Assembly (NCBI GenBank): GCA_964488395.1
Contig: CAZAVT010000002.1
Coordinates: 1-30,970 of the forward strand
Direction: 5' to 3'
Length of the DNA stretch: 30,970 bases
From: an uncultured Burkholderiaceae bacterium
GTDB taxonomy: Bacteria > Pseudomonadota > Gammaproteobacteria > Burkholderiales > Burkholderiaceae_E
A program made the position numbers and the translations under genes. Below are positions 2,376 to 28,842 of the stretch, one piece after another; position 1 is the first letter of the stretch, and every line of letters begins with the position of its first letter. The notes under the pieces are model-generated. The model was not told the DNA's origin, searched no databases, and was given only the letters and a program-made list of their open reading frames with translations.

Positions 2376-2417
2376 GCGATCAGCACCCCTTCGATCAACC
2401 GTCCAGGGAGTTTCAAC

Positions 2418-2897: not shown

Positions 2898-2901
2898 TCC
2901 T

Positions 2902-5491: not shown

Positions 5492-5603
5492 CGGAGGCTC
5501 CTATTGGAGAGAAGGTCAGACGGGGATGCGGACAAGCGCTTGAGGGCTGTGGGGCCCCATGTTAGATTGGATCGTCGATTGTTGACCACCCGGCGACCCT
5601 ACG

Positions 5604-12998: not shown

Positions 12999-14048
12999 TC
13001 ACTCCATCTTGATCCCAGTGGCGATCAGCCGTGCCCACTTATCGGCTTCGGCGCGCATGAGCTGCGCAAACTCGGCGGGTGTCTTGCTGTAAGTTGGGTC
13101 GGCGCCCCAAGTCTTCCAGCGCTCGAGGACCTCATCGCTTCGCATGATCTGCACGATTTCGCGATGAACTCGCGCGATGATCGCTTCGGACGTCCCGGCC
13201 GGCGCGACGAATCCGTACCAAGGGGTGACCTCGTAACCCCTGAGACCGCCCTCGGCCACGCTGGGCAACTCGGGCGCACTGGCGGTGCGTTCCAGGCTGG
13301 TCACGCCGATCGCCTTCACCTTGCCGCTTGCCGCGCGGGGCAACGCGATCGGAGCCCCGGCAAACACGAAATGCACCCGACCAGCAGTGAGGTCATTGAG
13401 CGCCTCGTTGATGCCCCGATACGGCACGTGCACGGACTGGAGTCCAGCCATCTGATTGAAGAGGGCCGCCGCCAGGTGGGTCAGACTGCCATTGCCTGAA
13501 GTCCCGTAATTGACCGCTCCAGGCCGGTTGGCGATGTACGCGGCAAGCTCGCGTGAACTCGCAACGGGCAGCTCGGGCGAGGTCAACAGCACCAGCGGAA
13601 AACTGCCAACCAGCGAGACCGGCGCGAAATCACGCAAGTTGTCCTCGGGCGACCGACTGCCCTGTCCCGAAGCAATGAGCATCGATGAGGCCGCGAGCAG
13701 AAAGGTGTAGCCGTCCGATGGCGATTTGGCCACCAGATTGGCGCCGATCGTGAGGCTCGCACCAGGCTTGTTGTCGATCACGACGGCCTGCCCGAGCGGG
13801 CCGGCAAGCTTGGTTGCGACAAAGCGGCCCAGCAGATCGGCCGGCCCGCCCGGTGTATACGGAATCACCAAGCGAATCGCCCGATCCGGGTAGGTGGACT
13901 GGCCGAGCGCGCAAAGCGGCGCGGTCAGCGTCAGGCCGGTCGCGAGTGAGGCGGCCAGGAGGCCTGCCCTGCAGGACGCGCCAAAGGGCGGGCGGGCCCA
14001 GTCCCTAACCCGCACCTTCAGAGCCGCGCGAGGGAGTCGATCCTTCAT
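12999..14048 (-). CDS. Bug/TctC substrate-binding protein (Bug 3)
   Basis: YPDRAIRLVIPYTPGGPAD, IDNKPGA, DGYT, HVPYRG and KWARLI. Confidence 0.94.
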   Translation of the reverse strand: MKDRLPRAALKVRVRDWARPPFGASCRAGLLAASLATGLTLTAPLCALGQSTYPDRAIRLVIPYTPGGPADLLGRFVATKLAGPLGQAVVIDNKPGASLTIGANLVAKSPSDGYTFLLAASSMLIASGQGSRSPEDNLRDFAPVSLVGSFPLVLLTSPELPVASSRELAAYIANRPGAVNYGTSGNGSLTHLAAALFNQMAGLQSVHVPYRGINEALNDLTAGRVHFVFAGAPIALPRAASGKVKAIGVTSLERTASAPELPSVAEGGLRGYEVTPWYGFVAPAGTSEAIIARVHREIVQIMRSDEVLERWKTWGADPTYSKTPAEFAQLMRAEADKWARLIATGIKME

Positions 14049-14059
14049 ACCCACCCCCT

Positions 14060-14887
14060 TCAGTCGGCCGTCGAAAAAAGCCGCGACACGCCGTAAAGCT
14101 CAGTCAATTCCTTGACTCGATACCGCGGCGGCATCGCATGATAGTAGCCTCGGGTACAGCGGCTGATGCCTAACTGCCGACGGAGGTCGGCGAGTACCTC
14201 GGCCGTCTTGAGGGTCGCGGCCACCCCATCGAGGATCGGCACATCGTCCACCCTCGAAATGCCCGCCCGCTGCAGCATCACGCTCATAGGCGCCTCGCCT
14301 GGAATGATCACGTCAGCCCCCTGCGCGATCAGCGCGCGGGCATTTTCAAAAAAGATCTCGAGGATGTCCTGCGGCGCCTGCCGGGTCGGCAAGACCGAGG
14401 AGGACGGGAACCCCACATAGCGCAGCCCCGCGCAGCGGCCCGTGAGGCCGTGAATCGCGATATTGCTCTCGAGCATTGGGATCATCTCGCGGATGAAGAG
14501 CAGCACGCCAAAGCGGGTGCCAAGGTGGACCGCCATGTTCATGGCGCATTCGCCGTAACCCACGACCGGAATCGAGACCAGGCTCTTGATCTCGCGTAGG
14601 CCGGGTTCGGGTAAGGTCGCGAGCGCAAAAGCATCGTAGCCCTGTTCTTCAGCAAGGATCGCCGCATAGGCGAACTGATGCGAGTGAATGGACTGAAAGT
14701 AGGCATAACCGACATCAGTGCTCGGGCCATCACCCTTGCGGTGGCCGTGAGTGCCCGGATGCGTACCATGTACGACCACCTCGGTGTCGTCACGAACCAC
14801 CTTCCGAATGTGCTCGCGCAGCGACGCGTCGTACTCAGGCACGCGGGCCAAGGTGGTAAAGCTCTGATGCCAGATGCGGGTCTTCAT
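14060..14887 (-). CDS. Asp/Glu/hydantoin racemase superfamily protein lacking both canonical catalytic Cys
   Basis: GYDAFALATLPEPGL...IPVVGYGE, FGVL, GADVIIPGEAPM and VPILDGVAATLKTAE align with the hydantoin racemase pattern (ACxGDPG, GCAGM, PVIDGV). Confidence 0.82.
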   Translation of the reverse strand: MKTRIWHQSFTTLARVPEYDASLREHIRKVVRDDTEVVVHGTHPGTHGHRKGDGPSTDVGYAYFQSIHSHQFAYAAILAEEQGYDAFALATLPEPGLREIKSLVSIPVVGYGECAMNMAVHLGTRFGVLLFIREMIPMLESNIAIHGLTGRCAGLRYVGFPSSSVLPTRQAPQDILEIFFENARALIAQGADVIIPGEAPMSVMLQRAGISRVDDVPILDGVAATLKTAEVLADLRRQLGISRCTRGYYHAMPPRYRVKELTELYGVSRLFSTAD

Positions 14888-14916
14888 GAAAATTCCTCAG
14901 GGTCTGCAAAAGAGAT

Positions 14917-16311
14917 TCAGGCGAGTCGTCGCAGGCCACGAGACAGTAGGCCGATGCGGGCCTGCTCGGTCGCTGGAACGGGAACCGGGACCTCAGCCGC
15001 CGGCAGCAATCGCTCGACCACCGACGCGCCGTCGTGCTCAGCACCCGCAAATGCAAGGCAGTCGGCCGCCTTGCGGCGCAATTCCTCATCGGTGAGAGGG
15101 TCGGGCGCATCGCCGTGGGCGACCTGAACACGGCGCGCAAGGCGCCGACCGTCCCTCAGATACACCGTCACCTCGCTCCAGCGCGGCAGAACCGGACCCT
15201 CGGCTTCGGTGAGCGAGATGATCCGCATCAGGGCCATCACCTCAGCGCGTCCGAAGGCCTGCGGCCGATAGGATTCAAGATCCACCCGCCCGTCGATCAA
15301 GCCCAAGGCCAGTGTGTAGGGCAGGCTGAACTTGCCCTGCAGGCTGTCGAGCGGCTCGCCCCCGATGAGCGCCTCGCGGCCGCGCGCGCTCGTGAGGACT
15401 TCGATGCGCTCGACCTCTCCCACCGCGAACCCGTCATCGACGCGCAGTGCGAGGAGTGCGTCCAGTGCGCGGTGGATCGCGTAGCAACACGGATATTTCT
15501 TGAGATCGATACCGACCCGCTCGATCGCAAGCGGTCGTTCGCCCAAGCGCGCGAGCGCCGGTGCCAGGTCTTCGCCCGCGGCATACAAACGGGTGAATCC
15601 ATAGGGGCCATCGATCGCGCCGGGCGCTGATGTAAAGCCCAAGGCGGCCAGCCGGACGCTCCTCACCGCCGCCGCGGCACAGATGCCGGCCTGAAACGAC
15701 TTGGCCATCGCGCCAAAGTTTTCCCGCGTGCCCGCTGCCTGTGCGACCGCCAGACCCAGCGCATGAATCGTCTGCGCCTCATCAAGATCGAGCAGTACCG
15801 CGCAACCGAGCGTCACCCCGATCACGCCCAGAGCCGAGGTCGAGTGCCAGCCCCGGCTGTAGTGATCGAGCGCGAGCACGGGCGCCATCGCAGCCATGAC
15901 CTCGTAGCCGGCAAGCCAGGCCTGCGGGTAGCGATGCGACAGCGTCGGTTGCGCGCAGGCGAGCGCCTGCAGCGCCGGCACCAAGGTCGCGCTGACATGC
16001 GCACGCATTGGCGTCAGCACATCGTCATAGTCGAACACATGGGCGGCCAAGGCGTTGAACCAGGCGGCCTCCTCGACAGGCAGGCGCGTCCCGTCGCCCC
16101 AGATGTGGGCCGCGCCATGACCGGCCACCTCGTCGAGGTGTCGGCGCGCGATCGCAACCACTGGATCATCGAGTGCCGCGACCGCGACCGCCCAGGTATC
16201 GAGCGCCGCCCGCCAGGCAAAGCGCCGTTCGATTGCACTCGGTGTCAGCCGGCCAAAACGCCGGGCAAACGCGGCCAGTTGGCTTGATGCACCCTCACCC
16301 GCGCGGGACAT
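14917..16311 (-). CDS. MmgE/PrpD family protein (IDS-epimerase / cis-aconitate-decarboxylase-like branch)
   Basis: NALAAHVFDYDD..H, GYEV, HYSRGWHST, KSFQAG, KKYPCC and KFSLPY. ATG 16311 lies 8 nt after the Bug 4 stop. Confidence 0.92.
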   Translation of the reverse strand: MSRAGEGASSQLAAFARRFGRLTPSAIERRFAWRAALDTWAVAVAALDDPVVAIARRHLDEVAGHGAAHIWGDGTRLPVEEAAWFNALAAHVFDYDDVLTPMRAHVSATLVPALQALACAQPTLSHRYPQAWLAGYEVMAAMAPVLALDHYSRGWHSTSALGVIGVTLGCAVLLDLDEAQTIHALGLAVAQAAGTRENFGAMAKSFQAGICAAAAVRSVRLAALGFTSAPGAIDGPYGFTRLYAAGEDLAPALARLGERPLAIERVGIDLKKYPCCYAIHRALDALLALRVDDGFAVGEVERIEVLTSARGREALIGGEPLDSLQGKFSLPYTLALGLIDGRVDLESYRPQAFGRAEVMALMRIISLTEAEGPVLPRWSEVTVYLRDGRRLARRVQVAHGDAPDPLTDEELRRKAADCLAFAGAEHDGASVVERLLPAAEVPVPVPATEQARIGLLSRGLRRLA

Positions 16312-16319
16312 CGTTTCGC

Positions 16320-17342
16320 TCACTCGGCCTTGATGCCAGCCGTTGCGATCACGCCCGCCCATCGGTCGTGCTCGCTGCGGATATAGTCGGCGAGCGCAGC
16401 GGGTGTGGCGCTGGTCATCGGCTCCATGCCCATCGAATCGAGTCGCTTGACGAAGTCGGCCGAATGGACCGCCGCCACGACCGCCTCGTGAAGCCGCCGG
16501 GCGACAGCCTCGGGCATCCTCGCGGGCCCAAGGAGCGCATACCAATTGCCCAGCGTCATGCCCGGCAAGCCCTGTTCGGCCATGGTCGGCACCTCCGGCA
16601 TGCCGGGATGTCGGGTCGGGCTGGTGATCGCAATGGCCCGAAGCCTCCCCTCGCGTACCGGCGCGCTCAAGGCCGCATAGTCAACCGCCATGGCGTGAAC
16701 CCGACCGGCGACCAGATCGGTGATGCCGGGAGCGGCGCCCTTGTAGGGCACGAACCGGACATCGACGCCAGCCACCGTTTTGAACAGTTCGAACACGAGA
16801 CGGGTCGAACCGCCCGTGCCAACGGTCACAAAGTCGAGCTGGCCTGGACGCTCGCGGGCCTGCGCGACGAGCTCGGTGACGCTCCCGACCTTGAGTCCTG
16901 GGCCCACCGCAAACAGGACCGGGCTACTCGCCACAGTGCTGATGCCTGTGAAATCGGTGAGCGGACTGTAGGGCACCTTGGCGTAAGTCAGCGCATTCAG
17001 CACCAGCGACGACAGGCCACCGGCAAGCAGCGTGTAACCATCGGCGGGCGCTTTGGCGACTAGATCCGCCGCGATGATGGCATTGGCCCCCGGTCGGTTC
17101 TCGACCAGCATCTGGACTTTTAGCGCTTCGCCCAGGCTCGCCGCGAGCTGGCGCGCCAGGATATCGTTGGCACCCCCCGGTGGATAACCGACGATCAGGC
17201 GAATCGGGCGGTTGGGATAGCTTTCAGCGAGCGCTGCTGGCGTGGCAAAAACCGCCAAGACCGACGCGAGGACGACAAGCAGTGCGCGTTGCAGCGCGCC
17301 CGGCCATGCGGCGTGCAGGAAGCGATCGATGGGAACGGGCAT
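16320..17342 (-). CDS. Bug/TctC substrate-binding protein (Bug 4)
   Basis: YPNRPIRLIVGYPPGGAND, VENRPGAN, DGYTLL, VPYKG and RWAGVIATAGIKAE. GGAG RBS before ATG 17342. Confidence 0.95.
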   Translation of the reverse strand: MPVPIDRFLHAAWPGALQRALLVVLASVLAVFATPAALAESYPNRPIRLIVGYPPGGANDILARQLAASLGEALKVQMLVENRPGANAIIAADLVAKAPADGYTLLAGGLSSLVLNALTYAKVPYSPLTDFTGISTVASSPVLFAVGPGLKVGSVTELVAQARERPGQLDFVTVGTGGSTRLVFELFKTVAGVDVRFVPYKGAAPGITDLVAGRVHAMAVDYAALSAPVREGRLRAIAITSPTRHPGMPEVPTMAEQGLPGMTLGNWYALLGPARMPEAVARRLHEAVVAAVHSADFVKRLDSMGMEPMTSATPAALADYIRSEHDRWAGVIATAGIKAE

Positions 17343-17380
17343 GGCAGACTCCACAAGAGGCGCAGGGCCGCACGACCGAT

Positions 17381-18163
17381 CTAGTCGCACCAGCTGCCGC
17401 CGTTGATATCCAGGATCTCCCCGGTGATGAAGCCAGCCGCCTCCCCGGCCAGGAACGCCACGGCATCGGCGACCTCGTCGGGGCGACCCAAGCGGCCCAC
17501 CGGGATCTGACTCTTTAGGCTCTCCGGAAAGACGTTCAACAGACGCGGGTTAGACCCGATCGGACCGGGCGCCACCGCGTTGACGGTGATGCCGCGGTGG
17601 GCGTTTTCCTTGGCGAGATAGAGCGTTAGCGCATGTACACCGGCCTTGGACGCCCCGTAGGCGAGATTGACGGCCCGTTTCTGCTCGGCGGGGTCGAGCC
17701 AGGGCCGGGGATTACCGCCATTTTTCGCCAGCAATGAACCAATATTGATGATCCGGCCATAGCCCCGTTCCCGCATCCCGGGAAGCACCGTCTGGCAGCA
17801 GATGAACACGCTGGTGAGATTGGCTCGCAGCACCCGATGCCATTCCGCCTCGGTCACATCCTCGGAGGCGCCGTGGGAGCCCACGCCCGCGAGATTGATC
17901 AAGATGTCAGGGGCCGAGAGCTCGCGCTCGCAGCGGGCGAGGAGTTGGGCCACCGCCGAGCTGTCGGCCACATCGGCCACGGCAACCATCGCCCGCCGAC
18001 CCGCTGCCCGCACCTGCTCGGCGGGCTCGCTGGCATCGATCAGATCGACGAGGCACAGATCGGCACCCTCGGCCGCAAAGCGCGCCGAGATCGCTCGGCC
18101 AAGCCCACCGGCTGCACCGGTCAGGAGGGCGGTCCGTCCTTGGAGCCGCATCGTCGTGCTCAT
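17381..18163 (-). CDS. Classical SDR oxidoreductase (FabG-like) with active-site loop insertion
   Basis: TGAAGGLG, NLAG, RIINIGS, YGASK, NAVAPG and TGEILDINGG. Confidence 0.93.
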   Translation of the reverse strand: MSTTMRLQGRTALLTGAAGGLGRAISARFAAEGADLCLVDLIDASEPAEQVRAAGRRAMVAVADVADSSAVAQLLARCERELSAPDILINLAGVGSHGASEDVTEAEWHRVLRANLTSVFICCQTVLPGMRERGYGRIINIGSLLAKNGGNPRPWLDPAEQKRAVNLAYGASKAGVHALTLYLAKENAHRGITVNAVAPGPIGSNPRLLNVFPESLKSQIPVGRLGRPDEVADAVAFLAGEAAGFITGEILDINGGSWCD

Positions 18164-19146
18164 TCGACCTTGATGCTGGCGGACTTAACGACCTTGGCCC
18201 ATTTCTCGAGCTCGTTCCGGTAGAACTCGCCGAACTGGGCTGCCGTGGTGCCCAGAGGCTCAGCGCCATTGGTCCGGAAGGCCTGCTGCACCTTGGGGTC
18301 GCTCAATGCCTTGATGGTCTCGGACTCGAGCCGACCCACGATGGCCGCTGGCGTTCCGGCCGGCGCAAACAGCCCGAACCAGGCCTGCGCATCGAAGCCA
18401 GGCACGCCAGCCTCGACCATTGTTGGGATCTCGGGAGCAATCGAGGCTCGGGTCGTCGTACTGACCGCCAGCCCGCGCAGCTTCCCGCTGGTGGAAAGTG
18501 GCCCCGTGGTGATCACGTTGTCGAAGGTGAGCGGTACCCGACCACCCACCACGTCGGTCATCGCCGGCGCAGTCCCCTTGTAGGGAATCGACTGCATGCG
18601 GATGCCGGTGAGGCTGCTGAAATACTCCATGAAGAGATGCGAACCCGAACCCGATCCAGCCGTCGCGTACTGCAAGGGATCCTTGGCGGCCTTGGCGGCG
18701 GCGATCAGGTCGGCAACGGTCTTGATCGGCGAGGACGGATGGACCACCAGCATGAAAGGGGTCGAGGCGATCTGACTGATCGGTAGCAGATCGGTCAGCG
18801 GGTTGAAGGGCAAATTCGGGTACAGCGACGGATTGACCGACAGCGAAATCGTACCGAGCAGGATCGTGTAACCGTCGGGGGCGGACTTCGCGACGTGATC
18901 GGAGCCGATGTTGCTCGCGGCACCCGGGCGGTTCTCAACAACGACCGACTGCCCCATCTGCTCGCTCAGCCGGGCTGCAATCGCGCGGCCCATGATGTCG
19001 CTCGCGCCGCCAGCGGTGAAGCCGACGATGAGCCGAACCGGCTTGGCTGGATAGGGCTGAGCCAGGGCTGCGGACGGTCCAAAGGTGGCCGCAGCCGCAA
19101 GGGCTGCTGCGAACACCGGGGCAAGCCATGCGTGAAGGGGGGTCAT
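18160..19146 (-). CDS. Bug/TctC substrate-binding protein (Bug 5)
   Basis: YPAKPVRLIVGFTAGGASD, VENRPGAA, DGYT, IPYKG and KWAKVVKSASIKVE. CAGGAG RBS. Stop overlaps the SDR ATG. Confidence 0.95.
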   Translation of the reverse strand: MTPLHAWLAPVFAAALAAAATFGPSAALAQPYPAKPVRLIVGFTAGGASDIMGRAIAARLSEQMGQSVVVENRPGAASNIGSDHVAKSAPDGYTILLGTISLSVNPSLYPNLPFNPLTDLLPISQIASTPFMLVVHPSSPIKTVADLIAAAKAAKDPLQYATAGSGSGSHLFMEYFSSLTGIRMQSIPYKGTAPAMTDVVGGRVPLTFDNVITTGPLSTSGKLRGLAVSTTTRASIAPEIPTMVEAGVPGFDAQAWFGLFAPAGTPAAIVGRLESETIKALSDPKVQQAFRTNGAEPLGTTAAQFGEFYRNELEKWAKVVKSASIKVE

Positions 19147-19214
19147 CGAATGCTCCTGGTCATACCGTTGATGGGCGATGGGGGGTCGTGGCATTGGGAA
19201 GTTGCGGGTCGCCT

Positions 19215-20660
19215 TCAGGGCTGGCGCGCTGCGTCGAGTCCTGCGATCCGACCGAAGACGGTGCCCTTGAGCACCGAGGTCGCACCGGTGTAGTGGCCGT
19301 AGTAGAGGCCCTGGGTCTCGCCGACCGCATAGAGCCCCGGGATCGGATCACCTTGCTGGCTGATGACTTCGCCGCGGCAGCCTGTCTTGAGTCCACCGAA
19401 GGTGAACACGATCGAGGAGACGATCGGATAGGCCTTGTACGGAGGGCGGTCAAGCGGACGAGCCCAATGGCTCTTCACAGGCCACAACCCGCGCGTCGAC
19501 AGCCCGTCGAGCGCCCGTGGGTTGAAGCCCGCCTCAGGTGGACAGGCACGGTTGTAGTCGGCGACGGTCGCCGCAAGCAGGTCAGCAGGCAGACCGAGCT
19601 CGGCGGCGAGGGCCTCGATGGAGGGCGCCTCGATGGCTGGTTGCTCGGTGCGGATTGCAACGGGCAGATTGGGCACCTCGGCCAGCCGGCCATCGAGAAT
19701 CACCCAGGCGATGCCGCCCGGCTGGGCAAAGATCTCACGGGTCACGGCCTCGTAGGTCTCGTCGGTATGGCCCGGCCCCTCATCGACGAAGCGCCGGCCA
19801 TGCCGATTGACCAGAATGCCGTAGGGATAGACATACATCGACGCCCCCGGTCTGGCCGAGCGCGGATCCATCGGCGAGGCATGCCAGCTGCCGAAATCAC
19901 CGCAGGGCGCAGCACCGATATCGAGCGCCATGCGGATCCCCTCGCCCTTGTTGTAGTGGCAGCCGTTGGACATCATCTTCAGGTGCAGCGCGCGCGGACC
20001 CAGGTAACGATTCATCATCTCGGCATTGCCCTGAAATCCGCCGCAGGCGAGGATGACCGAGCGCCCCCTGTACTCAACCGGGCGATGGCCGGGCGCGAGC
20101 GCGCGCACCCCGCACACCCGCCCATCCTCGATCAGCAAGGACTGGGCTGCGGTCTCGTAGACGATCTGACCGCCGAGACGCTCAAAGGAAGCGGCGAGCG
20201 AGTCGACCAGCGCCCGACCGCCACCACTGGGCTGGATGCGCGGCTGGGCCGAGGTCGGGAAAGGGACCTCGAGCGGAATGAAACGCACGCCGTGGGTCTT
20301 GAGCCAGGCCAGGGTCGGCGGCGCTTCGCTCGCCAGCGTGGCCACCACATGGGGATCGACCATGCTGAGCGCCCGCAGGATTCTCGGCTGCTCCCCGTGC
20401 GGCCGTGCGGAGTCAGCAACCAGGCCAGGATCGAGGTAGCCACCGGCGTTGACGGCGAAATGCTCCTCGAAGTCCTCGCTGATCTCGGCTTCGGATTTCA
20501 TCCGCATCCAGGCACCGGTATGCCGGGTATTGCCCCCGCGCTCCTCATGGGGTGCACGCTCGAGCACGCAAACCCGCGCACCGGCCTCGGCGGCCGACAC
20601 GGCTGCCGACAGGCCCGCACCGCCGCAGCCCACCACGATCACATCATACGAATCGACCAT
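19215..20660 (-). CDS. FAD-dependent oxidoreductase, tricarballylate dehydrogenase (TcuA/CobZ)-like
   Basis: DVIVVGCGGAGLSAA, RGGNT, LACGGF.GN, GEGIRMALDIGA, WH, GILVN..G.RFVDEG, FTFGGL, PGLYAVGE and GTVFGRIAG. No covalent-FAD His motif of SdhA/FrdA. Start is ATG 20660 or TTG 20669. Confidence 0.85.
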   Translation of the reverse strand: MVDSYDVIVVGCGGAGLSAAVSAAEAGARVCVLERAPHEERGGNTRHTGAWMRMKSEAEISEDFEEHFAVNAGGYLDPGLVADSARPHGEQPRILRALSMVDPHVVATLASEAPPTLAWLKTHGVRFIPLEVPFPTSAQPRIQPSGGGRALVDSLAASFERLGGQIVYETAAQSLLIEDGRVCGVRALAPGHRPVEYRGRSVILACGGFQGNAEMMNRYLGPRALHLKMMSNGCHYNKGEGIRMALDIGAAPCGDFGSWHASPMDPRSARPGASMYVYPYGILVNRHGRRFVDEGPGHTDETYEAVTREIFAQPGGIAWVILDGRLAEVPNLPVAIRTEQPAIEAPSIEALAAELGLPADLLAATVADYNRACPPEAGFNPRALDGLSTRGLWPVKSHWARPLDRPPYKAYPIVSSIVFTFGGLKTGCRGEVISQQGDPIPGLYAVGETQGLYYGHYTGATSVLKGTVFGRIAGLDAARQP

Positions 20661-20695
20661 CTGGATCAAGTCTCCCGTAACACGCTGAAGGAGGG

Positions 20696-23473
20696 CTACG
20701 CCTGGCTGCGGCTGGGCTCGGCTGCTGCGCCAAACAGGCGTAGAACCCGACTCGGTATGCCGCCGCCTTGCATCAGGTTGCGCTCAGCTCGGGTCAAGAG
20801 CGCCGGATGCACTGAAAATTCGATCGTCGTCCCATCGGGAGACAGCGCGCTGACCGTCACCGCGCTACCCGTTTCGATCGCCGCCTCAATCCCCTGCAGG
20901 CTGAATCGTTCATGCCCCTTGAGACCCAGTGACGCCCATCCCTGACCCGGGTCAAACAGGAGCGGCAGCACGCCCATGGCGATGAGATTGGCGCGATGGA
21001 TACGCTCGAAGGACTCGGCGATCACTGCAGCCACGCCCAGGAGCAAAGTACATTTGGCGGCCCAATCGCGACTGCTGCCACTGCCGTAATCGCGCCCGGC
21101 CAGCACCAGCGTCGGAACGCCGGCTGCGCGATAGCGCATGGCCGCCTCAAAGACGCTCATCACCGCGCCGCTCGGGTGATGCAGCGTCTGGCCGCCCTCG
21201 GTGCCCGGGAGCAAGAGATTACGCAGCCTCAGGTTGGCAAATGCCGCCCGGCTCATCACCCGGTAGTTGCCTCGACGACCGACGTAACTGTTGAAATCCG
21301 CCTGCCGGACGCCGAGCGAGACCAAGTAGCGCCCGGCGGCCGAGTCGAGCGGAATCTCCCCGCCCGGCGAGATATGGTCGGTGGTCACCGAATCGCCGAG
21401 CAGCACCAGCGCGTGCGACCGGTCGATCCGGTCAGGGTCAGACCTCGCGGCCACCGGCTGAGCAAGCACCTGATCGGCGAGTGCTTCACTCCAGGGCTGA
21501 GGGCTTTGGACCAGTGATCGATCGACGACAACAGGCGCCGATACCGAGCCGAAGAAGGGCGGCTCGACAAGATAGCTCGACTGCGGGTCCCAAGCGTAGC
21601 GAGGCCCAGTGGGCGACTCGAGCGCCGCCCATAGTGTCGTGTCAGCGCCGCGCTCGTAGACCCGCCTGAAACGGGCAGGGTCCTCGGCAAGCGGCAGCAG
21701 CGCCGTGATCTCGGCGGGTTCGGGTAACAGATCGCGGGCCAGCACCGGGCGGCCGTCGCGATCGATGCCGATGGGGTCCGTCTCCAGATCCAGATCGATC
21801 CGGCCAGCGAGCGCGCAGATCACCACCCAATGCGGCGCGCCGATATAGTTGGCCCGGATCAGCTTGTGGATCCGACCTTCGAAATTGCGGTTACCCGAGA
21901 TGACCGCAGCCACCACGGCCTGCGAGGCCTCGATGGCCTCGGCAACCCCCGGGTTGAGCGGACCCGATTTGCCCCCACACGTGGTGCATCCGTGGCCGAT
22001 AAGACCGAAGCCGATCGCCTCGAGAGGCTCGAGCAGTCCAGCTGCGGCCAGATAGTCGGCGACCACCCGTGAGCCCGGCGCCATCGAGGTCTTGACCCAA
22101 GGGGCCGGCCGCAGGCCTCGCTCGACCGCTCGACGGGCCGTGAGGCCGGCCGCGAGCATCACGGCAGGATTGGAGGTATTGGTGCAGGACGTGATCGCAG
22201 CTAGCACCACCGCACCGTCGGTGAGCGCGGGCGCCGAGCGATCCGACCCCAGCCCCATGCGCGCGTAACCCCCCACATCGACCGGGGCCGCGAGGCGGCG
22301 CCTGAAATCCGCGCCGACCACCGCGATATCCATGCGGTCCTGGGGCCGGCGCGGACCAGCAAGGCTGGGTCGGGCAGCCGACACATCGATCTCGATCACC
22401 CGGCTGTAGCGTGGCAGGGCCTCGCCGGCTGCTCTGAAAAAGCCGTTCGCGCGCCCGTAGCGCTCGACTCTCTCGATCAGCGCGGGCTCCCGTCCGGTCG
22501 CCCGTAAATAGTCGAGCGTTCGGGCGTCAACCGGGAAAAAACCACAGGTTGCCCCATACTCGGGACACATGTTGGCAAGCGTCGCACGCTCGGCGACCGG
22601 CATCACATCGACCGCTGGGCCAACGAATTCGAGCGCGCAGGCGGTCACGCCCTCGCGCCGCAGCCGCTCGGTAACAAGCAGCACCAGATCGGTACTGACC
22701 GCGCCCGGGCCGATGTCGCCCGAGAGTCGCACCCCGACCACCTGGGGCATGGGAAAGCCGTAAGGTTCGCCGAGCAAGGCGGCCTCGGCATCCAAACCGC
22801 CCACCCCCCAGCCGAGCACGCCCAAAGCATTCACCATGGTGGTATGCGAGTCGCAACCCAGCACGAATTCGGGGCACCACCACGTCTGCCCCGCGTGGCT
22901 TAGCTCAGCGACGACCGAAGCAATCCGCTCGATGTGAATCTGGTGAATGATGCCACTGCCGGGCGGGTGGATGCGCAACCCCCTGAAGGCGCCATGCGCC
23001 CATTTGATGAAGCGATAGCGTTCCTGGTTGCGTTTGAATTCGCGAGCAAGATTGAGATCGATCGCATCGGCTCGAGCCCAGTGGTCGACCTGCAGCGAAT
23101 GATCGACGATCAGATCCACCGGCAAGAGTGCATCGGCGCGGGCAGGATCAACGCCGCGCCGCGCAAGCGCATCGCGCAAGGCCGCCAGGTCCTGTAAGAG
23201 CGGCAGTCCGCTCGAATCGGGCAGCACCACCCGGGTCACCTGCAGGGCGATGTCGCGGCCTTCATGGGCCTGCCAGTCGATGACCCGATCGATTTCCTCG
23301 TCGGCCACCGCGCCAGGTCCGCCCCAGGCGCGACTACGAAGCAGGTTCTCGAGCATGACCCGAATGCAATACGGATAGTCGTGAATCGAACGACCCCGAT
23401 CACGCAGGGCTGCCCCGATATCGCACCAGCGCTTCTCTGGCGCCTTGTCGTGCAGCCGGTCGGGCTGCGTCAT
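20696..23473 (-). CDS. acnA: AcnA-family [4Fe-4S] aconitate hydratase, divergent variant
   Basis: DHS, HQ, DSHT, ANMCPEYGAT, AAITSCTNTSNP, GCTTC, SGNRNFEGRIH, TTDHISP, RRGN, GSSRDWAAK and ESFERIHR.NL. GGAGG RBS. The symbol is family-level only because substrate-binding motifs deviate. Confidence 0.9.
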   Translation of the reverse strand: MTQPDRLHDKAPEKRWCDIGAALRDRGRSIHDYPYCIRVMLENLLRSRAWGGPGAVADEEIDRVIDWQAHEGRDIALQVTRVVLPDSSGLPLLQDLAALRDALARRGVDPARADALLPVDLIVDHSLQVDHWARADAIDLNLAREFKRNQERYRFIKWAHGAFRGLRIHPPGSGIIHQIHIERIASVVAELSHAGQTWWCPEFVLGCDSHTTMVNALGVLGWGVGGLDAEAALLGEPYGFPMPQVVGVRLSGDIGPGAVSTDLVLLVTERLRREGVTACALEFVGPAVDVMPVAERATLANMCPEYGATCGFFPVDARTLDYLRATGREPALIERVERYGRANGFFRAAGEALPRYSRVIEIDVSAARPSLAGPRRPQDRMDIAVVGADFRRRLAAPVDVGGYARMGLGSDRSAPALTDGAVVLAAITSCTNTSNPAVMLAAGLTARRAVERGLRPAPWVKTSMAPGSRVVADYLAAAGLLEPLEAIGFGLIGHGCTTCGGKSGPLNPGVAEAIEASQAVVAAVISGNRNFEGRIHKLIRANYIGAPHWVVICALAGRIDLDLETDPIGIDRDGRPVLARDLLPEPAEITALLPLAEDPARFRRVYERGADTTLWAALESPTGPRYAWDPQSSYLVEPPFFGSVSAPVVVDRSLVQSPQPWSEALADQVLAQPVAARSDPDRIDRSHALVLLGDSVTTDHISPGGEIPLDSAAGRYLVSLGVRQADFNSYVGRRGNYRVMSRAAFANLRLRNLLLPGTEGGQTLHHPSGAVMSVFEAAMRYRAAGVPTLVLAGRDYGSGSSRDWAAKCTLLLGVAAVIAESFERIHRANLIAMGVLPLLFDPGQGWASLGLKGHERFSLQGIEAAIETGSAVTVSALSPDGTTIEFSVHPALLTRAERNLMQGGGIPSRVLRLFGAAAEPSRSQA

Positions 23474-23527: not shown

Positions 23528-23557
23528 AGTCTAGCGAGCCGATCCGCGAAGCGTCAA
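23528..23557 (-). promoter_or_regulatory. Putative sigma70 promoter for the aconitase operon
   Basis: Minus strand TTGACG (23557-23552), 18-nt spacer, TAGACT (23533-23528), 54 nt upstream of ATG 23473. Confidence 0.6.
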
Positions 23558-23562
23558 CACTT
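23549..23562. promoter_or_regulatory. Putative GntR operator 1 (AAGCGT-CA-ACACTT)
   Basis: Near-palindrome with one mismatch. It matches operator 2 and overlaps the -35 hexamer of the minus-strand promoter. Confidence 0.55.
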
Positions 23563-23601
23563 TTAAGGAAAATGGGCCATCAAGCCTTGACTGGACGGGG
23601 T

Positions 23602-23617
23602 TTAGTGTTGACACTAA
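23602..23617. promoter_or_regulatory. Putative GntR operator 2 (TTAGTGT-TG-ACACTAA)
   Basis: Perfect 7-bp inverted repeat with a 2-nt spacer in an AT-rich intergenic region, ending 5 nt before the GntR ATG. Confidence 0.65.
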
Positions 23618-23622
23618 CACCC

Positions 23623-24384
23623 ATGGACGCAGCCTTGTTCCCGGATCGTCATGCGGCACGCGACGTGCCAGGCACGCTCGCTGACAGCGTCTTCGACCAC
23701 CTGCTGCAGGCGATCCAGTCGGGTCGACTCGCGTCCGGTGAGGTGCTGAACGAAGTCGCGCTCGCCCAGGAACTCGGCGTTTCCAGGGGGCCCGTGCGCG
23801 AGGCCATCCGGCGACTGCAGGGCGTGCAACTGGTCGAGCGCGAAGCCTACCTGCGCGCGCGGGTCGTCGAACTGAACGCGGCAACGGCGCGCGAGCTTTT
23901 CGAAATGCGTGAGGCACTCGAGGGCATGGCCTGTCGGCTGGCCGCCCAACGAATGTCGGAAAGCGAGATCGATTCGCTCGAGCGTGATCTCGAAGCAGCC
24001 CGCGCCGCGCGTCTGAAGGACCAGGGCAGGCGCCGATCGCCGGTGACCGGCTTCGATTTTCACGAGCGGATCGCCCTGGCAAGCGGCAATGCCCGGATCC
24101 ACGCGACGCTCACCGGCGACCTGCATCATCTGCTATCGCTCTACCGGGTTCGCTCCGGATTGGTCCCCCATCGCAAGGACAATGCCTTTGCAGAACACTG
24201 GCAGGTCGTTCGGGCAATCCGGGCGCGCGATGGCGAACTCGCTGAATCGCTCATGCGTTCGCACGTCAGGCGCGCCGCCGAGCAGCTGTTTCGCGAACTG
24301 CCCGATGGCCCGCGTGACCGGCCGCTCGAGCGGCCGCGACCCGCCACCGAATCCCAGACCGTGACGGAGAGACCCCCACCGTGA
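23623..24384 (+). CDS. GntR family transcriptional regulator, FadR/FCD subfamily
   Basis: TLADSVFDHL..AI.SG.L..G..LNEVALAQELGVSRGPVREAIRRL wHTH, and an FCD domain with DFHERIA..SGN, EHWQVV.AI and MRSHV. Start is ATG 23623 (23572 is an alternative). Confidence 0.93.
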   Translation: MDAALFPDRHAARDVPGTLADSVFDHLLQAIQSGRLASGEVLNEVALAQELGVSRGPVREAIRRLQGVQLVEREAYLRARVVELNAATARELFEMREALEGMACRLAAQRMSESEIDSLERDLEAARAARLKDQGRRRSPVTGFDFHERIALASGNARIHATLTGDLHHLLSLYRVRSGLVPHRKDNAFAEHWQVVRAIRARDGELAESLMRSHVRRAAEQLFRELPDGPRDRPLERPRPATESQTVTERPPP

Positions 24385-25283
24385 AGCCCACCGCCCCCTC
24401 CGCCGCCGCCCGCTTGCGCGCGCTCCTTCAAAGCGACGAACTGATCGTCGCGCCCGGTGTCTTTGACGGCTACAGCGCAAGGCTGGTCGAAGCCGCGGGG
24501 TATCGAACTGCCGCCACCAGCGGTGCCGCCGTTTCGAATTCCCTGCTGGGGGTTCCCGACATCGGCGTGATGGGGCTGAACGAGAACGTCACCCACTGCC
24601 GTAACCTGGCCCGGTCGATTTCAATCCCGCTTACCGCGGATGCCGACACCGGCTACGGCAATCCCGTCAATGTCTGGCACACCGTGCGGCTGTTCGAGGA
24701 GGCGGGTGTTGCGGGGATCAACATCGAGGATCAGGTCAGTCCCAAGCGCTGCGGCCACATGCCCGGCAAGCAGGTGGTCGATGACGCCGAGATGGTGCGC
24801 AAGATCGAGGCCGCCTGCATGGCGCGCAGAGACGACGACTTCGTGATCATCGCCCGTACCGACGCGCTGGCGGTCGAGGGCATCGAGGGCGCCGCCCGGC
24901 GGGCGCGGCTCTACGCCCAGGCTGGTGCCGACCTGATCTTCCCGGATGCCGTACGCACCGAGGACGAGATCGCCCGTATCGTCGAGGCCGCCGGGATTCC
25001 CGTGACGATCAATATGGGTTTTGGCATCCGCTCGCGACCAACCACGCCGCTCATCCCATTGCCCCGGCTGAAGGCGCTCGGCGTGCGCCGAATCAGCCTG
25101 CCGCGCATGCTGCCGGGTGCCGCGATCCGTGCGATGAAGGAGGCACTTCGCCTGATGCAGCAGGTGATCGCGACCGGCGAACCAATCGACCGACCCGATC
25201 TGATCGCAGGCATCGACGAGATCACCGAGCTGATGGACTACGACGGCATGCGCGAACGCGAGGCTCAACTACTTAAGCTCTGA
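24381..25283 (+). CDS. Isocitrate lyase / PEP mutase superfamily lyase (PrpB / 2,3-dimethylmalate lyase / CPEP mutase-like)
   Basis: APGVFD..SARL, TSGA, ADADTGYG, NIEDQ..PKRCGH and IIARTDA. GTG start overlaps the GntR stop (GTGA). Confidence 0.93.
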   Translation: MKPTAPSAAARLRALLQSDELIVAPGVFDGYSARLVEAAGYRTAATSGAAVSNSLLGVPDIGVMGLNENVTHCRNLARSISIPLTADADTGYGNPVNVWHTVRLFEEAGVAGINIEDQVSPKRCGHMPGKQVVDDAEMVRKIEAACMARRDDDFVIIARTDALAVEGIEGAARRARLYAQAGADLIFPDAVRTEDEIARIVEAAGIPVTINMGFGIRSRPTTPLIPLPRLKALGVRRISLPRMLPGAAIRAMKEALRLMQQVIATGEPIDRPDLIAGIDEITELMDYDGMREREAQLLKL

Positions 25284-25337: not shown

Positions 25338-25913
25338 ATGAGCGAATTCCGTATCGACCCCGCCACTTCGGCCCTGGTGCTGATCGACCTGCAGGTTGGC
25401 ATCGTCGCGATGAACGTGGCGCCGCGCCCTTCCTCAGAGGTGGTGGCAAACGCGCGTCGACTGGCCGCGCGATTTCGGGCGGCACACGCCACCGTGGTAC
25501 TGGTCAACGTCGCCAATCTGCCCGACGGCCGAGATGCGCTCGCACCCACGCTCGATCAACCGCCGCCTGCTGGCAAGCGCCCCGAGAACTGGGCCCAGTT
25601 CGTGCCCGAACTCGATCAGCAGACCAGCGATCTGGTGATCACCAAGCGGCAATGGGGCGCGTTCTATGGCACCGAACTCGACCTGCAACTTCGCCGCCGC
25701 GGGATTCGCACGATCGTGCTCGCCGGCATCTCGACCAACGTCGGCGTGGAGTCGACCGCGCGGGATGCCTTCGAGCGCGGCTTCGACCAGATCCTGGTCG
25801 AAGATGCAATGGCCAGTCCCTCGGCTGAAGCTCACGTGGCAACCGTGAAATTCACGTTTCCGAGGATCGGTCGCATCCGCACCACCGAGGCGGTGCTGAC
25901 GGCACTCGGCTGA
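25338..25913 (+). CDS. Isochorismatase-family protein, YecD-like
   Basis: ALVLIDLQ.GI, ITKRQWGAFYGTELDLQLRRRGI.TIVLAGISTNVGVESTAR. Gly sits at the usual nucleophilic Cys position. Confidence 0.9.
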   Translation: MSEFRIDPATSALVLIDLQVGIVAMNVAPRPSSEVVANARRLAARFRAAHATVVLVNVANLPDGRDALAPTLDQPPPAGKRPENWAQFVPELDQQTSDLVITKRQWGAFYGTELDLQLRRRGIRTIVLAGISTNVGVESTARDAFERGFDQILVEDAMASPSAEAHVATVKFTFPRIGRIRTTEAVLTALG

Positions 25914-25935: not shown

Positions 25936-26844
25936 TTAGGCGAACCGATCCGGTTGGGGCTGGTCGATCCCCGGGGCGAGCGGCTGCTGCGCCGGCTCAG
26001 GGCCGAGAACGAGGTCCTCGCTCGCCGTCGGGTTCAGGTCGAACGGGACCGCCCGGGCGAGCGCCATCCAAACCGCAAAAGGCAGTGTCTTTGACGCACG
26101 ACGTGGCGCTGGACGCGCCACCCGGAATCGCCCCGCCTCCTCGAGCAGCACACCGCACTCCGGCGGGAGCTCGGAAGGATCGGCGATCGGACGCCCGGCC
26201 TTGTCAGCGCCCAGCACGTACCAGCACTCGTCGGCAAGGGCGAAATAGGCGGCACGCTTGTCGGGCCGTCTGAGCTCGCCCAGCAGATCGCTGCGGTGGC
26301 TCTTGATCTCGTCGATACGGCTTGAGAGGCGGCCTGGGTCGGACGTGTTGCGAATCGAGAAAACGTCCGGTCGGCATAATCGCCAACGGACATTGGACAC
26401 CGGCTCGTCGGCGACTGGACCCAGCAGGTCGTCGTCGGCCAGGTTGGGCTCGGACGTCCCATCGGGCAAGGCAGCATCCTGTATGGGCGCACGCAGGCAT
26501 AGGCCAGTCCAGACAATCCGGCCCTGCGCCTGCAGGCTCGTGGCGACCCTCCTGACCAGCCCCTCGTGCGGATCGAAAGCGCTCCGGTTGATCTCGAGCG
26601 AACGCTTGAGCCAGACCAGCCCGAGATCGGTCAGCCGAAGGGTCTCTGCGCCGGCGCTACCGGCGGGCGGGACGACGCGCTCGATGAGACCCGCTGCGAG
26701 AAGATCGATCTCAATGGCGTCCAGACTGGGCCATCCCGCGGAGCGCCACAGAGCCCGCAAGCGCCGCAAATGCGCGCGACGGGGGGCCCAGTCCGTCGAG
26801 CCGCTCAGAAGCTGAGATTGGCTGCCTTGACGAGCGTGGTCCAC
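25936..26844 (-). CDS. Hypothetical protein: wHTH-like N-terminus plus MmcB-like PD-(D/E)XK nuclease domain
   Basis: RPDVFS...DEIKSHRSDLLGE...KRAAY...ADECWYV...ELPPECGVL...VARPAP. Start is uncertain because GTG 26844 overlaps the Bug 6 3' end by 40 nt. Confidence 0.7.
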   Translation of the reverse strand: MDHARQGSQSQLLSGSTDWAPRRAHLRRLRALWRSAGWPSLDAIEIDLLAAGLIERVVPPAGSAGAETLRLTDLGLVWLKRSLEINRSAFDPHEGLVRRVATSLQAQGRIVWTGLCLRAPIQDAALPDGTSEPNLADDDLLGPVADEPVSNVRWRLCRPDVFSIRNTSDPGRLSSRIDEIKSHRSDLLGELRRPDKRAAYFALADECWYVLGADKAGRPIADPSELPPECGVLLEEAGRFRVARPAPRRASKTLPFAVWMALARAVPFDLNPTASEDLVLGPEPAQQPLAPGIDQPQPDRFA

Positions 26845-27779
26845 CGCTCGATATCCTCGCCGATGAGCTTCATCATGTCGTCGGGCGAGCCGCCCAGCAC
26901 GGTGGTGCCTTCGGATTCGAATTTTTCACGAATCGCGGGCATCTTCAGCACCTCGTTCAGCTCGCGATTGAGCCGCGTCAGGACATCGGCAGGGATCCCG
27001 CGCGGCCCGCCGATCGCCTTCCAATCGACCACCTGGTATTTCGGGTAGCCCTGTTCAGCGAAGGTCGGCACCTCGGGCAACTGTGACGAGCGCTGGGTAC
27101 CGGAGATCCCGATGGCACGCACCCGGCCTGCCTTGACATGCTGGGCGGCAAAAGTGGCACTGGTGAACATCAGGTCCACACTGCGGCCCATCACATCGGT
27201 AAACGCCTGGGAGGACCCCTTGTACGGCACATGGAGCAATTGCACCCGCATGTTGTAGCCGAGTTCCTCGGCCGCCATGTGGGCGATCGAGCCCATGCCG
27301 GCGGACCCGTGGGAGATCTTGCCGGGGCTCTTGCGGGCCAATGCCTCGAGTATGTTGGCATCACGGATCGCCGAATCCGGATGAACGATCGCCACCACCG
27401 GGTCGCGCGAGACCATCATAATCGGCTGCAAGTCACCCAGCGGGTCGTAAGGCAGTTTCTTGTTCACCGCCGCCTGGATTGCATAGGTGCTGGACATGTT
27501 GAGTAAGGTGTAGCCATCGGGCGGGGACTTCAGCACATGGGCCGCCCCAATGTTGCCGCTTGCACCGACCCGGTTTTCGACCACCACGCCCGCGGGAAAG
27601 CGCTCGGACAGGCCCTTGGCCACCAATCGCGCGATCACATCACCACCACCTCCGGCGGCAAACGGCACCACGAAACTGATCGGTCGGTTGGGAAACCCGG
27701 TCTGTGCGCGCAGAAACGGGGTGGCGCCGGCCAGCGTCACGGCCGCAAGGCCTGAGCGAACGAAATCACGTCGATGCAT
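26805..27779 (-). CDS. Bug/TctC substrate-binding protein (Bug 6), twin-arginine-type signal
   Basis: MHRRDFV signal, FPNRPISFVVPFAAGGGGD, VENRVGASG, DGYTLL and HVPYKG. GGAGGAG RBS before ATG 27779. Confidence 0.95.
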   Translation of the reverse strand: MHRRDFVRSGLAAVTLAGATPFLRAQTGFPNRPISFVVPFAAGGGGDVIARLVAKGLSERFPAGVVVENRVGASGNIGAAHVLKSPPDGYTLLNMSSTYAIQAAVNKKLPYDPLGDLQPIMMVSRDPVVAIVHPDSAIRDANILEALARKSPGKISHGSAGMGSIAHMAAEELGYNMRVQLLHVPYKGSSQAFTDVMGRSVDLMFTSATFAAQHVKAGRVRAIGISGTQRSSQLPEVPTFAEQGYPKYQVVDWKAIGGPRGIPADVLTRLNRELNEVLKMPAIREKFESEGTTVLGGSPDDMMKLIGEDIERWTTLVKAANLSF

Positions 27780-27855
27780 GAGGCTCCTCCAGGATGACAG
27801 GGCGGTTGGATGGCGGATTGGTTCGACCCCCCATCGCGCATCGTGATCGAGATCC

Positions 27856-28842
27856 TCAGCGGGCCTGAAGATCAACCACGAGACGGCCACGGTTGCGACC
27901 CTCGATCAGCGCCTCGAAGGCCTGCGGCAGCTCGCGCAGTCCGATCACCCGTCGGATCGCGGCCATGTGGCGCGGTCGAAGGTCGGTCGCAAGGCGCGCC
28001 CAAATGCGTTCGCGAAGGGGCATGGGGCTGTTGGCGTTGATCCCGAGGAGGCGCACACCCCGCAGGATCAGCGGCATCATCGAGGTCGACAACCCATTGC
28101 CCGCGGCGTTGCCAAAACTCGCGATCACGCCGTTGGGCAACATGGTGCGCAGCAAGTCGTCGAGCGGCTCTCCCCCCAGGGAATCGATGGCGCCCGCCCA
28201 GCGCGCGCGCTCGAGCGGACGGGCACCGATCGTGGGCGGGGGGTGGACCTCGCGCGCGCCGAGCTTACGCAACCAACCATCGTCAGACTTGCGACTGAGC
28301 GCGCAGACTTCGTAGCCCAGACCGGCGAGCATGTCGATCGCGAGGCAAGCCACGCCGCCGGTTGCACCATTCACGGCAACCGGGCCATTCGCCGGCGCGA
28401 GGCCGTTCTGCTCAAGCGCATCGATCGCGAGCGCCGCCGTGTAGCCAGCGGCACCCAAGGTACCGGCCTCCTCGAGGGACAGGCCCTCGGGCAGGCGCAT
28501 CACCAGATCGGCCGGAACAACGGTGGTCTGGGTGAAGCCGCCATCGCGTTCGGCGCTCAGCCCAAAGCCATGGACGATCACGCGATCACCGGCCCGAAAG
28601 CGTGAGTCGGCGGACTGCTCGACCGTCCCCGCGATCTCGATGCCCCCTGTGCAGGGAAAGCTGCGCACGATCGGGGCGCGGTCCAGGCCCGCGAGGGCAT
28701 CCTTGTAGTTGACGCCAGCGTAAGCGCCCCGGATCACCACGTCACCGTCGCCGGCGATCTCAGCAAGTTGCCGTTCGACGAGTGCGCTCCGAAACCCCTT
28801 TTCGTCCTTGAAGAGGCGCCAGGCGAGGAAGGCGTCGGTCAT
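27856..28842 (-). CDS. YhdH/AcuI family NADPH-dependent MDR oxidoreductase (putative acryloyl-CoA reductase)
   Basis: VNYKDALA, GIEIAGTV, GAAGYTA, VNGATGGV, WAGAIDSLGG, MPLILRGVRLLGI and GRLVVD. Confidence 0.88.
   Translation of the reverse strand: MTDAFLAWRLFKDEKGFRSALVERQLAEIAGDGDVVIRGAYAGVNYKDALAGLDRAPIVRSFPCTGGIEIAGTVEQSADSRFRAGDRVIVHGFGLSAERDGGFTQTTVVPADLVMRLPEGLSLEEAGTLGAAGYTAALAIDALEQNGLAPANGPVAVNGATGGVACLAIDMLAGLGYEVCALSRKSDDGWLRKLGAREVHPPPTIGARPLERARWAGAIDSLGGEPLDDLLRTMLPNGVIASFGNAAGNGLSTSMMPLILRGVRLLGINANSPMPLRERIWARLATDLRPRHMAAIRRVIGLRELPQAFEALIEGRNRGRLVVDLQAR

Follow-up and report, generated by a model that had tools for sequence, protein, structure and literature searches.

The window analysed here, 30,970 nt of contig CAZAVT010000002.1 from an uncultured Burkholderiaceae bacterium, carries on its minus strand (20696..23473) a gene for an AcnA/IRP-type [4Fe-4S] aconitase-family hydro-lyase (P0001), a member of a distinct clade named PDSSG/GKS after its motifs at two loops. 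This variant aconitase probably hydrates a non-canonical analogue of aconitate and passes the product to a PrpB-like lyase encoded beside it. For the clade as a whole, we lean slightly towards the view that PDSSG/GKS aconitases and their private lyases form an undescribed hydratase-lyase trunk, whose substrate is an intermediate of neither the tricarboxylic acid (TCA) cycle nor the methylcitrate cycle. Such a trunk would be fed by a TcuA-like desaturase or by cyclic amide hydrolysis, and would be conserved in some Rhizobiales as well as in Alcaligenaceae, among them Bordetella and Achromobacter. It could work by direct hydration of trans-aconitate to erythro-isocitrate or by hydration of a C2-substituted aconitate, in which case cleavage could give pyruvate or oxaloacetate together with succinate.

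The gene is a stop-free frame of 925 amino acids (aa), with a GGAGGA Shine-Dalgarno sequence 4 nt upstream of its ATG. Pfam recognised Aconitase (E 1e-131) and Aconitase_C (E 5e-36) in one chain, with domain 4 at the C-terminus, and the protein shares the four-domain architecture of Escherichia coli AcnA and IRP1 at approximately 40–48% identity. The AlphaFold2 model (pLDDT 92.7, pTM 0.93) was superposed on closed, cluster-bearing IRP1 (2b3x) with TM 0.89/0.93 and on the open, RNA-bound form (3snp) with TM 0.58, and Foldseek matched it to AcnA 9a4j_A with TM 0.91.

Motifs were compared using residue alignments to human and rabbit IRP1 and E. coli AcnA. The cluster ligands C430, C496 and C499 are all present, and DHS (residue 124), DSH, NMCPEYG (301), SCTN (429), NRNFEGR (528), RRGN (733) and SSRD (800) are kept; the first-pass annotation, which had described the cluster Cys, DHS, DSH, NRNFEGR, RRGN and SSRD as intact, was correct on this point. 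In a 70-sequence alignment (A1) the cluster Cys and D124, H125, H177, D208, S209, H210, N301, E305, N528, R529, R534, R734, S800 and R802 are invariant. The kept residues match the classical IRP1 residues C437/C503/C506, R536, R541, R699, S778 and R780, and the alignment register is therefore considered sound. Judged by its sequence, P0001 is an intact and probably active iron-sulfur aconitase-type enzyme.

The motif substitutions listed in the same annotation were all recovered in these alignments. The codons at 23207..23221 (minus strand) read PDSSG (aa 85–89) in place of QDFTG, with P85 and S87 being clade-specific, and those at 21962..21988 (minus strand) read CTTCGGKSG (aa 496–504) in place of C(M/T)TCIGNSG, so that two cluster Cys are followed by G500 (canonical Ile) and K502 (canonical Asn). 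A second lysine, K537 (21863..21865, minus strand), stands three residues past the second Arg of NRNFEGR, at a position occupied by Pro in canonical AcnA (IRP1 P544) and by Lys in 30/31 clade members. HQIHIER replaces HQVNLEY at aa 177, GCDSH replaces GTDSH at aa 206 and AAKC replaces AAKG at aa 805. P85 aligns with the IRP1 equivalent of Gln72 of mitochondrial aconitase and G500 with that of Ile425, both of which we take to be first-shell residues, while the Arg and Ser residues anchoring the distal carboxylate are retained throughout the clade. The remodelled substrate pocket proposed in the first-pass annotation is thus suggested, by sequence homology, from the replacement of both first-shell equivalents.

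The homologue set comprised the best 120 matches in a collection of 5.8 billion proteins, with identities of 54–87%. PDSSG was found in 120/120 of these nearest homologues (one reads PDSTG), as was C-x-[GAS]-G-K-S, and because these two changes are common to all of them they are not attributed to chance drift. The source names include Bordetella bronchiseptica, B. holmesii, B. hinzii, B. petrii, Achromobacter spp., Pigmentiphaga, Candidimonas and Advenella, as well as Verticiella, Rhizobacter, Shinella, Mesorhizobium and Falsochrobactrum, and nearly all of the 120 are annotated as 'aconitate hydratase AcnA'. When 31 clade members were set against 39 other AcnA-type sequences, P85, S87, Q94, F203, D228, Y238, D389, G500, K502, K537, I544, G545, E706, A828, W846 and R898 were clade-specific. 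The Thr of GTDSH is lost clade-wide, being Cys in the query and Gly or Ala in others, and HQIHIER and AKC are confined to the query sub-branch (P0001–P0006). Among the altered motifs first read as marks of a subfamily, PDSSG and CTTCGGKSG therefore hold for the whole clade, whereas the Arg of HQIHIER and the Cys of AKC hold for the sub-branch only.

Three trees were built, one with FastTree (100 rows) and two with IQ-TREE in quick mode (73 and 81 rows), the rows including E. coli AcnA, three sequences passing the AcnD cut-off (L026, L028 and L029) and 50%-identity representatives of a 1.8-billion-protein library; a further row, AcnD_L027, was dropped after the first tree because its ORF proved to be an off-frame artefact. 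PDSSG/GKS sequences formed a pure clade with support of 97–100 (Shimodaira-Hasegawa approximate likelihood ratio test 99–100) on a stem of 0.13–0.16 substitutions per site. When rooted on AcnD, this clade was sister to a large canonical group (QDFTG/HQVNLEY/GTDSH/CIGNS) that includes E. coli AcnA, and it was distant from true AcnD in all trees. The phylogeny with AcnA and AcnD that had been proposed at first reading thus placed the query outside the canonical AcnA clade and bore out the claim of a separate aconitase subfamily, monophyletic and not nested in the group that holds E. coli AcnA. The AcnD motif given in the first-pass annotation was also correct, since the three sequences above the AcnD cut-off read HDILG and CNGMS. 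These are the same two loops that are changed in the PDSSG/GKS clade, and since true AcnD differs from AcnA there, the two loops are taken to track specificity.

Other well-separated AcnA-type clades were seen with the same two loops altered, namely P0131/P0178 (HDTTS, HTINLE), P0142/P0159 (EDNAG, C-A-G-S-G) and P0137/P0151 (QDLLA/QDMLG, C-N-G-M-S), all of them scoring close to or over the cut-off of the AcnA equivalog; the label 'AcnA' probably hides several specificities. The HDTTS-type sequences P0131 and P0178 were considered as AcnD and rejected, scoring far below the AcnD cut-off. PDSSG alone was likewise rejected as a clade marker, as P-D-S-S also occurs in L048, L061, contig C104 of the query's own genome and P0152, which branch elsewhere. 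L048, L061 and C104 represent a second paralogue type (PDSSG / GMDSH / C[AM]GNSG) near canonical AcnA and outside the clade, and P0152 (PDSSA) sits at yet another tree position; because of these paralogues, the change from Gln to Pro is considered to have arisen more than once. The C104 paralogue (PDSSG, GMDSH, C-M-G-N-S; L013, 1019–2767 and 2602–4020, minus strand) lies in two overlapping frames, with an apparent frameshift or assembly error near 2600–2770, and its relatives in L048 and L061 are intact.

The query's own genome is a metagenome-assembled genome of 543 contigs with 71.6% completeness. Canonical AcnA, with VLQDFTGVPL / HQVNLEY / GTDSH / CTTCIGNAG, was present at 21/29 loci checked in relatives from the genus, family and order, and contig C328 of the own genome holds a contig-truncated copy of the QDFTG/CIGNAG type. 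Proteins sharing at least 67% identity and the full motif set with the query, counted as its orthologues, were found in 4/13 same-genus genomes, and a degenerate DNA pattern for CGGKSGPL matched 2/401 evenly sampled genomes of the phylum. The variant aconitase gene is accessory. Its product could in principle serve the TCA cycle as the housekeeping aconitase, or moonlight as an IRP-like RNA-binding protein, with neighbours that are coincidental, as its NCBIfam name, AcnA, would imply; AcnB, moreover, was not found in the 71.6% complete own genome. We regard this as extremely improbable in view of the canonical AcnA of most relatives and its partial copy on C328, the patchy gene distribution, and the synteny and operator kept across records named as Alpha- and Betaproteobacteria. 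In the Shinella locus (L025), another AcnA-type gene of 900 aa (2950–5652; HQLNLEL, GTDSH, C-A-T-C-V-G-A-S) adjoins MmgE/PrpD-family and CMD-family genes and lies 4 kb from the PDSSG/GKS aconitase, so that this organism has several specialised AcnA paralogues side by side.

In the window, the aconitase gene is divergent from a repressor-type GntR/FCD-family regulator (23572..24384, plus strand; Pfam GntR and FCD), followed by a PrpB-like carbon-carbon lyase that also resembles 2,3-dimethylmalate lyase (DMML) and belongs to the phosphoenolpyruvate (PEP) mutase/isocitrate lyase (ICL) superfamily (24381..25283, plus strand; Pfam PEP_mutase), and by a YecD-like isochorismatase-family cysteine hydrolase (25338..25913, plus strand; Pfam, NF008517 at 228 vs 195, PDB 1j2r YecD). 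On the aconitase side, a TcuA-like FAD-dependent dehydrogenase (19215..20669, minus strand; FAD_binding_2, NF006130 TcuA) lies 26 nt downstream, and is accompanied by a TctC/Bug-family periplasmic solute receptor of the tripartite tricarboxylate transporter family (18160..19194, minus strand; Pfam) and a short-chain dehydrogenase/reductase (SDR; 17381..18163, minus strand; Pfam).

This arrangement was compared across nine loci of the clade: the window, L009/L010, the contig of P0007, L011 (B. bronchiseptica), L024 (Achromobacter insolitus), L025 (Shinella), L062, L063 and L064. The lyase is divergently adjacent to the aconitase at 9/9 loci, with an isochorismatase-family gene within three genes, again at 9/9. 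A GntR/FCD gene stands between lyase and aconitase at six of the nine, TctC or TctABC is present at eight, an FAD_binding_2 flavoprotein at six, an SDR at six and a hydantoinase-like Amidohydro_1 protein at four. By pairwise BLAST, the lyase is 65–90% identical over the eight loci with DNA; between the window and Bordetella, Achromobacter or Shinella its identity is approximately 74–75%, which exceeds aconitase conservation. The regulator is 50–82% identical to same-position regulators in five other loci. Within the genus, orthologues of the lyase, sharing at least 83% identity, occurred in G041, G049 and G051, next to the aconitase on the same contig, and in 0/9 genomes without an aconitase orthologue; none was found with this query in the fragmented genome G043. 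Regulator, lyase and hydratase are a co-inherited, co-regulated trio, the operator being predicted.

Two accessory sets were distinguished. Type I comprises the window, L009 and L063, and by gene order the P0007 contig; among the first three, the TcuA-like flavoprotein is 68–83%, the SDR 64–82% and the YecD-like hydrolase 68–86% identical. Type II (L011, L024, L025 and L062) has a hydantoinase-like amidohydrolase, with L- and D-hydantoinases as best matches, a different 240-aa hydrolase closest to N-carbamoylsarcosine amidohydrolase and, often, CobW.

The putative operator was found in the aconitase-regulator intergenic region, which measures 98–149 nt and contains two copies of the palindrome AGTGTYRACACT. 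One, the operator-like palindrome AGCGTCAACACT (23550..23561), has 1 mismatch to AGTGTYRACACT and shares bases with the -35 element of a putative sigma-70-like promoter for the aconitase gene (TTGACG-18-TAGACT; 23528..23557, minus strand), identified as a consensus match only; the other, the perfect palindrome AGTGTTGACACT (23604..23615), lies 8 nt before the ATG at 23623. The 31-kb window has 2 matches to AGTGTYRACACT, both intergenic, with 0.03 expected by chance. The palindrome recurs in the corresponding intergenic regions of L009 (9859–9870), L024 (9933–9944), L034, L062 (one of two copies, at 2989–3000 and 7950–7961) and L063 (7826–7837), with near-matches in L011 and L025, and is probably the operator of the GntR/FCD regulator. 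The second perfect copy in L062 lies between the FAD-dehydrogenase/TctC and SDR-TctBA operons, and for this reason the FAD-dehydrogenase and SDR-TctBA genes of L062 are predicted to share the regulon. The regulator in the window could start at 23572 (270 aa) or at 23623 (253 aa). The latter appears more likely, because homologues measure 224–240 aa and because the perfect operator would otherwise fall inside the longer open reading frame (ORF).

The lyase retains the KRCGH catalytic loop. In the PDB it matches methylisocitrate lyases and 2,3-dimethylmalate lyase best, and it resembles these rather than ICL; its F, M and P align with the residues that line the hydrophobic pocket for the C2-alkyl group in PrpB. 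A PrpB-like lyase in the same window as an MmgE/PrpD-family gene (14917–16545, minus strand; Pfam) would be in keeping with an AcnD-like enzyme for 2-methylcitrate or 2-methyl-cis-aconitate in a variant methylcitrate cycle, the more so as AcnD departs from AcnA at the same two loops. Nevertheless, P0001 scores 661 bits against a cut-off of 1419.85 on the AcnD model TIGR02333, its motifs are unlike HDILG/CNGMS, and the clade lies far from AcnD in all trees; other clade members tested also score above the AcnA and below the AcnD cut-off. The lyase, with 246 bits on TIGR02317 prpB, is below the cut-off of 354, the PrpD-family protein reaches only 35 bits on a PrpD equivalog and its gene is missing from L009, and Pfam scans of the window ORFs detected neither PrpF nor a PrpC-type citrate synthase domain. 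A methylcitrate role is accordingly given very little credence.

On the preferred reading, in which the variant aconitase hydrates another acid for its own lyase, a TctC receptor would import a tricarboxylate-like acid, which in type I clusters would be desaturated by the TcuA-like flavoprotein; in clusters of the Bordetella/Achromobacter type, the unsaturated acid would instead be freed from a cyclic amide by the hydantoinase-like and carbamoylsarcosine-amidase-like enzymes. The variant aconitase would then hydrate the double bond to give a 2-hydroxy acid, which the lyase would split by retro-aldol cleavage into a 2-oxo acid and a succinate-type acid. Binding of the GntR regulator at the AGTGTYRACACT sites over the divergent promoters would gate the system.

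The enzyme most probably acts on an analogue or isomer of aconitate and not on cis-aconitate itself. The equivalents of Gln72 and Ile425 are lost and two Lys gained while the Arg and Ser residues for the distal carboxylate are kept, AcnD shows that the same loops encode specificity, isocitrate would not require a private lyase of the PrpB/DMML type, and half of the clusters have no TcuA-like enzyme. A C2-substituted aconitate may be put forward, speculatively, because the extra space and Lys would fit it and because the lyase keeps what we take to be the C2-alkyl pocket residues of PrpB. Another speculative candidate is trans-aconitate, anti-hydration of which would give erythro-isocitrate, needing its own lyase. 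To judge from the type II clusters, a cyclic amide or ureide may be a further source of this acid or of a similar one.

Several points weigh against this reading. P0001 passes the NCBIfam AcnA equivalog TIGR01341 with 999.4 bits against a cut-off of 945, for which reason the family is named AcnA in databases. The flavoprotein just passes one TcuA model, and TcuA makes cis-aconitate. The type I and type II accessory sets may lead to different substrates, and the SDR and the isochorismatase-family hydrolase have no role in the proposed scheme.

The first two of these points also favour a dedicated but canonical aconitase for tricarballylate, whereby TcuA would yield cis-aconitate, the aconitase D-threo-isocitrate and the lyase, acting as a small ICL, glyoxylate and succinate; the motif changes would then be neutral, or would tune kinetics or oxygen stability. 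The flavoprotein scores 385.6 on NF006130 TcuA against a cut-off of 369, TctC-family receptors are present and the catalytic and carboxylate-anchoring residues are all kept. On TIGR02485, however, the flavoprotein fails with 220.9 against 372.55, and the own genome yielded no TcuB: the best TIGR02484 match reaches 32.7 bits against a cut-off of 246.6 at 71.6% completeness. Moreover, L011, L024, L025 and L062 keep the aconitase-lyase pair without a TcuA-like flavoprotein, no clade member keeps the first-shell equivalents of Gln72 and Ile425, cis-aconitate and isocitrate should need no dedicated pair of enzymes given the canonical AcnA of relatives, and the lyase is PrpB/DMML-like, not ICL-like. 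Dedicated tricarballylate breakdown is thus considered unlikely, and hydration of an aconitate analogue remains preferred.

Further along the minus strand, a block specific to this window (12999..17390), absent from the closest syntenic locus L009, contains by Pfam a TctC gene (16320–17390), the MmgE/PrpD-family gene, an Asp/Glu-racemase-superfamily gene (14060–14887) and another TctC gene (12999–14054). Genes of the PrpD family and Amdase-like genes are again seen close to the clade members of L011 and L025. The MmgE/PrpD ORF shares 226 nt with the TctC ORF upstream of it and matches Pfam only from residue 91 onwards; the true start is probably well downstream of 16545. Altogether, six TctC/Bug receptor genes were counted in 31 kb (1–1380, 3726–4715, 12999–14054, 16320–17390, 18160–19194 and 26805–27890) and no TctA or TctB in the window, such 'orphan' receptors being typical of organisms with expanded Bug families. 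A separate small cluster (1443–5491) consists of an HpcH/HpaI-type aldolase (1443–2375, plus strand), a cupin (2418–2897, plus strand), a GntR/UTRA regulator (2902–3729, plus strand), a TctC receptor (3726–4715, plus strand) and a second HpcH/HpaI aldolase (4709–5491, minus strand), and is followed by an isochorismatase-family gene (5604–6242, plus strand).

None of the characterised or solved aconitases retrieved has PDSSG, a full-text literature search found no description of a PDSSG-type aconitase or its gene cluster, and a feature search of the ESM Atlas returned generic AcnA clusters only. The clade, its loop signature, obligate lyase partner and operator thus appear to be undescribed in the literature searched and among solved structures; fold and chemistry belong to a known superfamily. 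The label 'aconitate hydratase AcnA' is carried by at least 120 sequence clusters, with genes of B. bronchiseptica, B. holmesii and Achromobacter xylosoxidans among them, and metabolic models that count clade members as the TCA-cycle aconitase are probably wrong. The Gln and Ile absent from the clade contact substrate, to our knowledge, in every studied aconitase, and the clade offers a natural experiment in retuning the AcnA scaffold. The 2-oxo-acid product of the co-inherited lyase would reveal the substrate, an effector screen of the GntR regulator is made possible by its defined operator. Knowledge of the substrate would matter for metabolism, its identification could bring to light a further catabolic route, acting on a tricarboxylate abundant in plants or soil or on a cyclic amide.

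Compared with AcnA/IRP1 (E. coli AcnA, human 2b3x), P0001 has the same architecture, three Cys ligands, DHS, DSH, NRNFEGR, RRGN and SSRD, but differs in PDSSG, C-G-G-K-S, K537 and approximately 12 further clade-specific positions and falls in a separate clade; its gene is an accessory one within a regulated catabolic cluster, whereas AcnA is encoded by a stand-alone housekeeping gene. The window shares with the tricarballylate utilisation system TcuABC of Salmonella a TcuA-like FAD dehydrogenase beside aconitase chemistry and a tricarboxylate uptake component. In contrast to TcuABC, it has TctC-family uptake in place of TcuC, a private aconitase and lyase, no TcuB that could be found and a flavoprotein that passes one of two TcuA models. 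AcnD (TIGR02333) is likewise an AcnA-type paralogue altered at the same two loops, and the AcnD pathway ends in a PrpB-type lyase, as the proposed pathway of P0001 would in a similar one; the loop residues of P0001 are nonetheless different, the two are distant in trees and P0001 has no prpF or prpC neighbours in the window.

The closest parallels in pathway logic are the methylcitrate trunk, in which PrpD/Acn is followed by PrpB, and the nicotinate fermentation of Eubacterium barkeri, with dimethylmaleate hydratase and 2,3-dimethylmalate lyase. P0001 differs from the E. barkeri hydratase in being a single-chain AcnA-type and not a LeuCD-type enzyme, and the lyase of the window differs from PrpB of the methylcitrate trunk in falling below the PrpB cut-off. 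The enzymes upstream differ as well, being a TcuA-like flavoprotein, an SDR and a cysteine hydrolase, or a hydantoinase-like enzyme and an amidase. Common to all three pairs, on the reading preferred here, would be an aconitase-superfamily hydratase that forms a substituted malate or isocitrate and a lyase of the ICL/PEP-mutase superfamily with a KRCGH loop that cleaves it.

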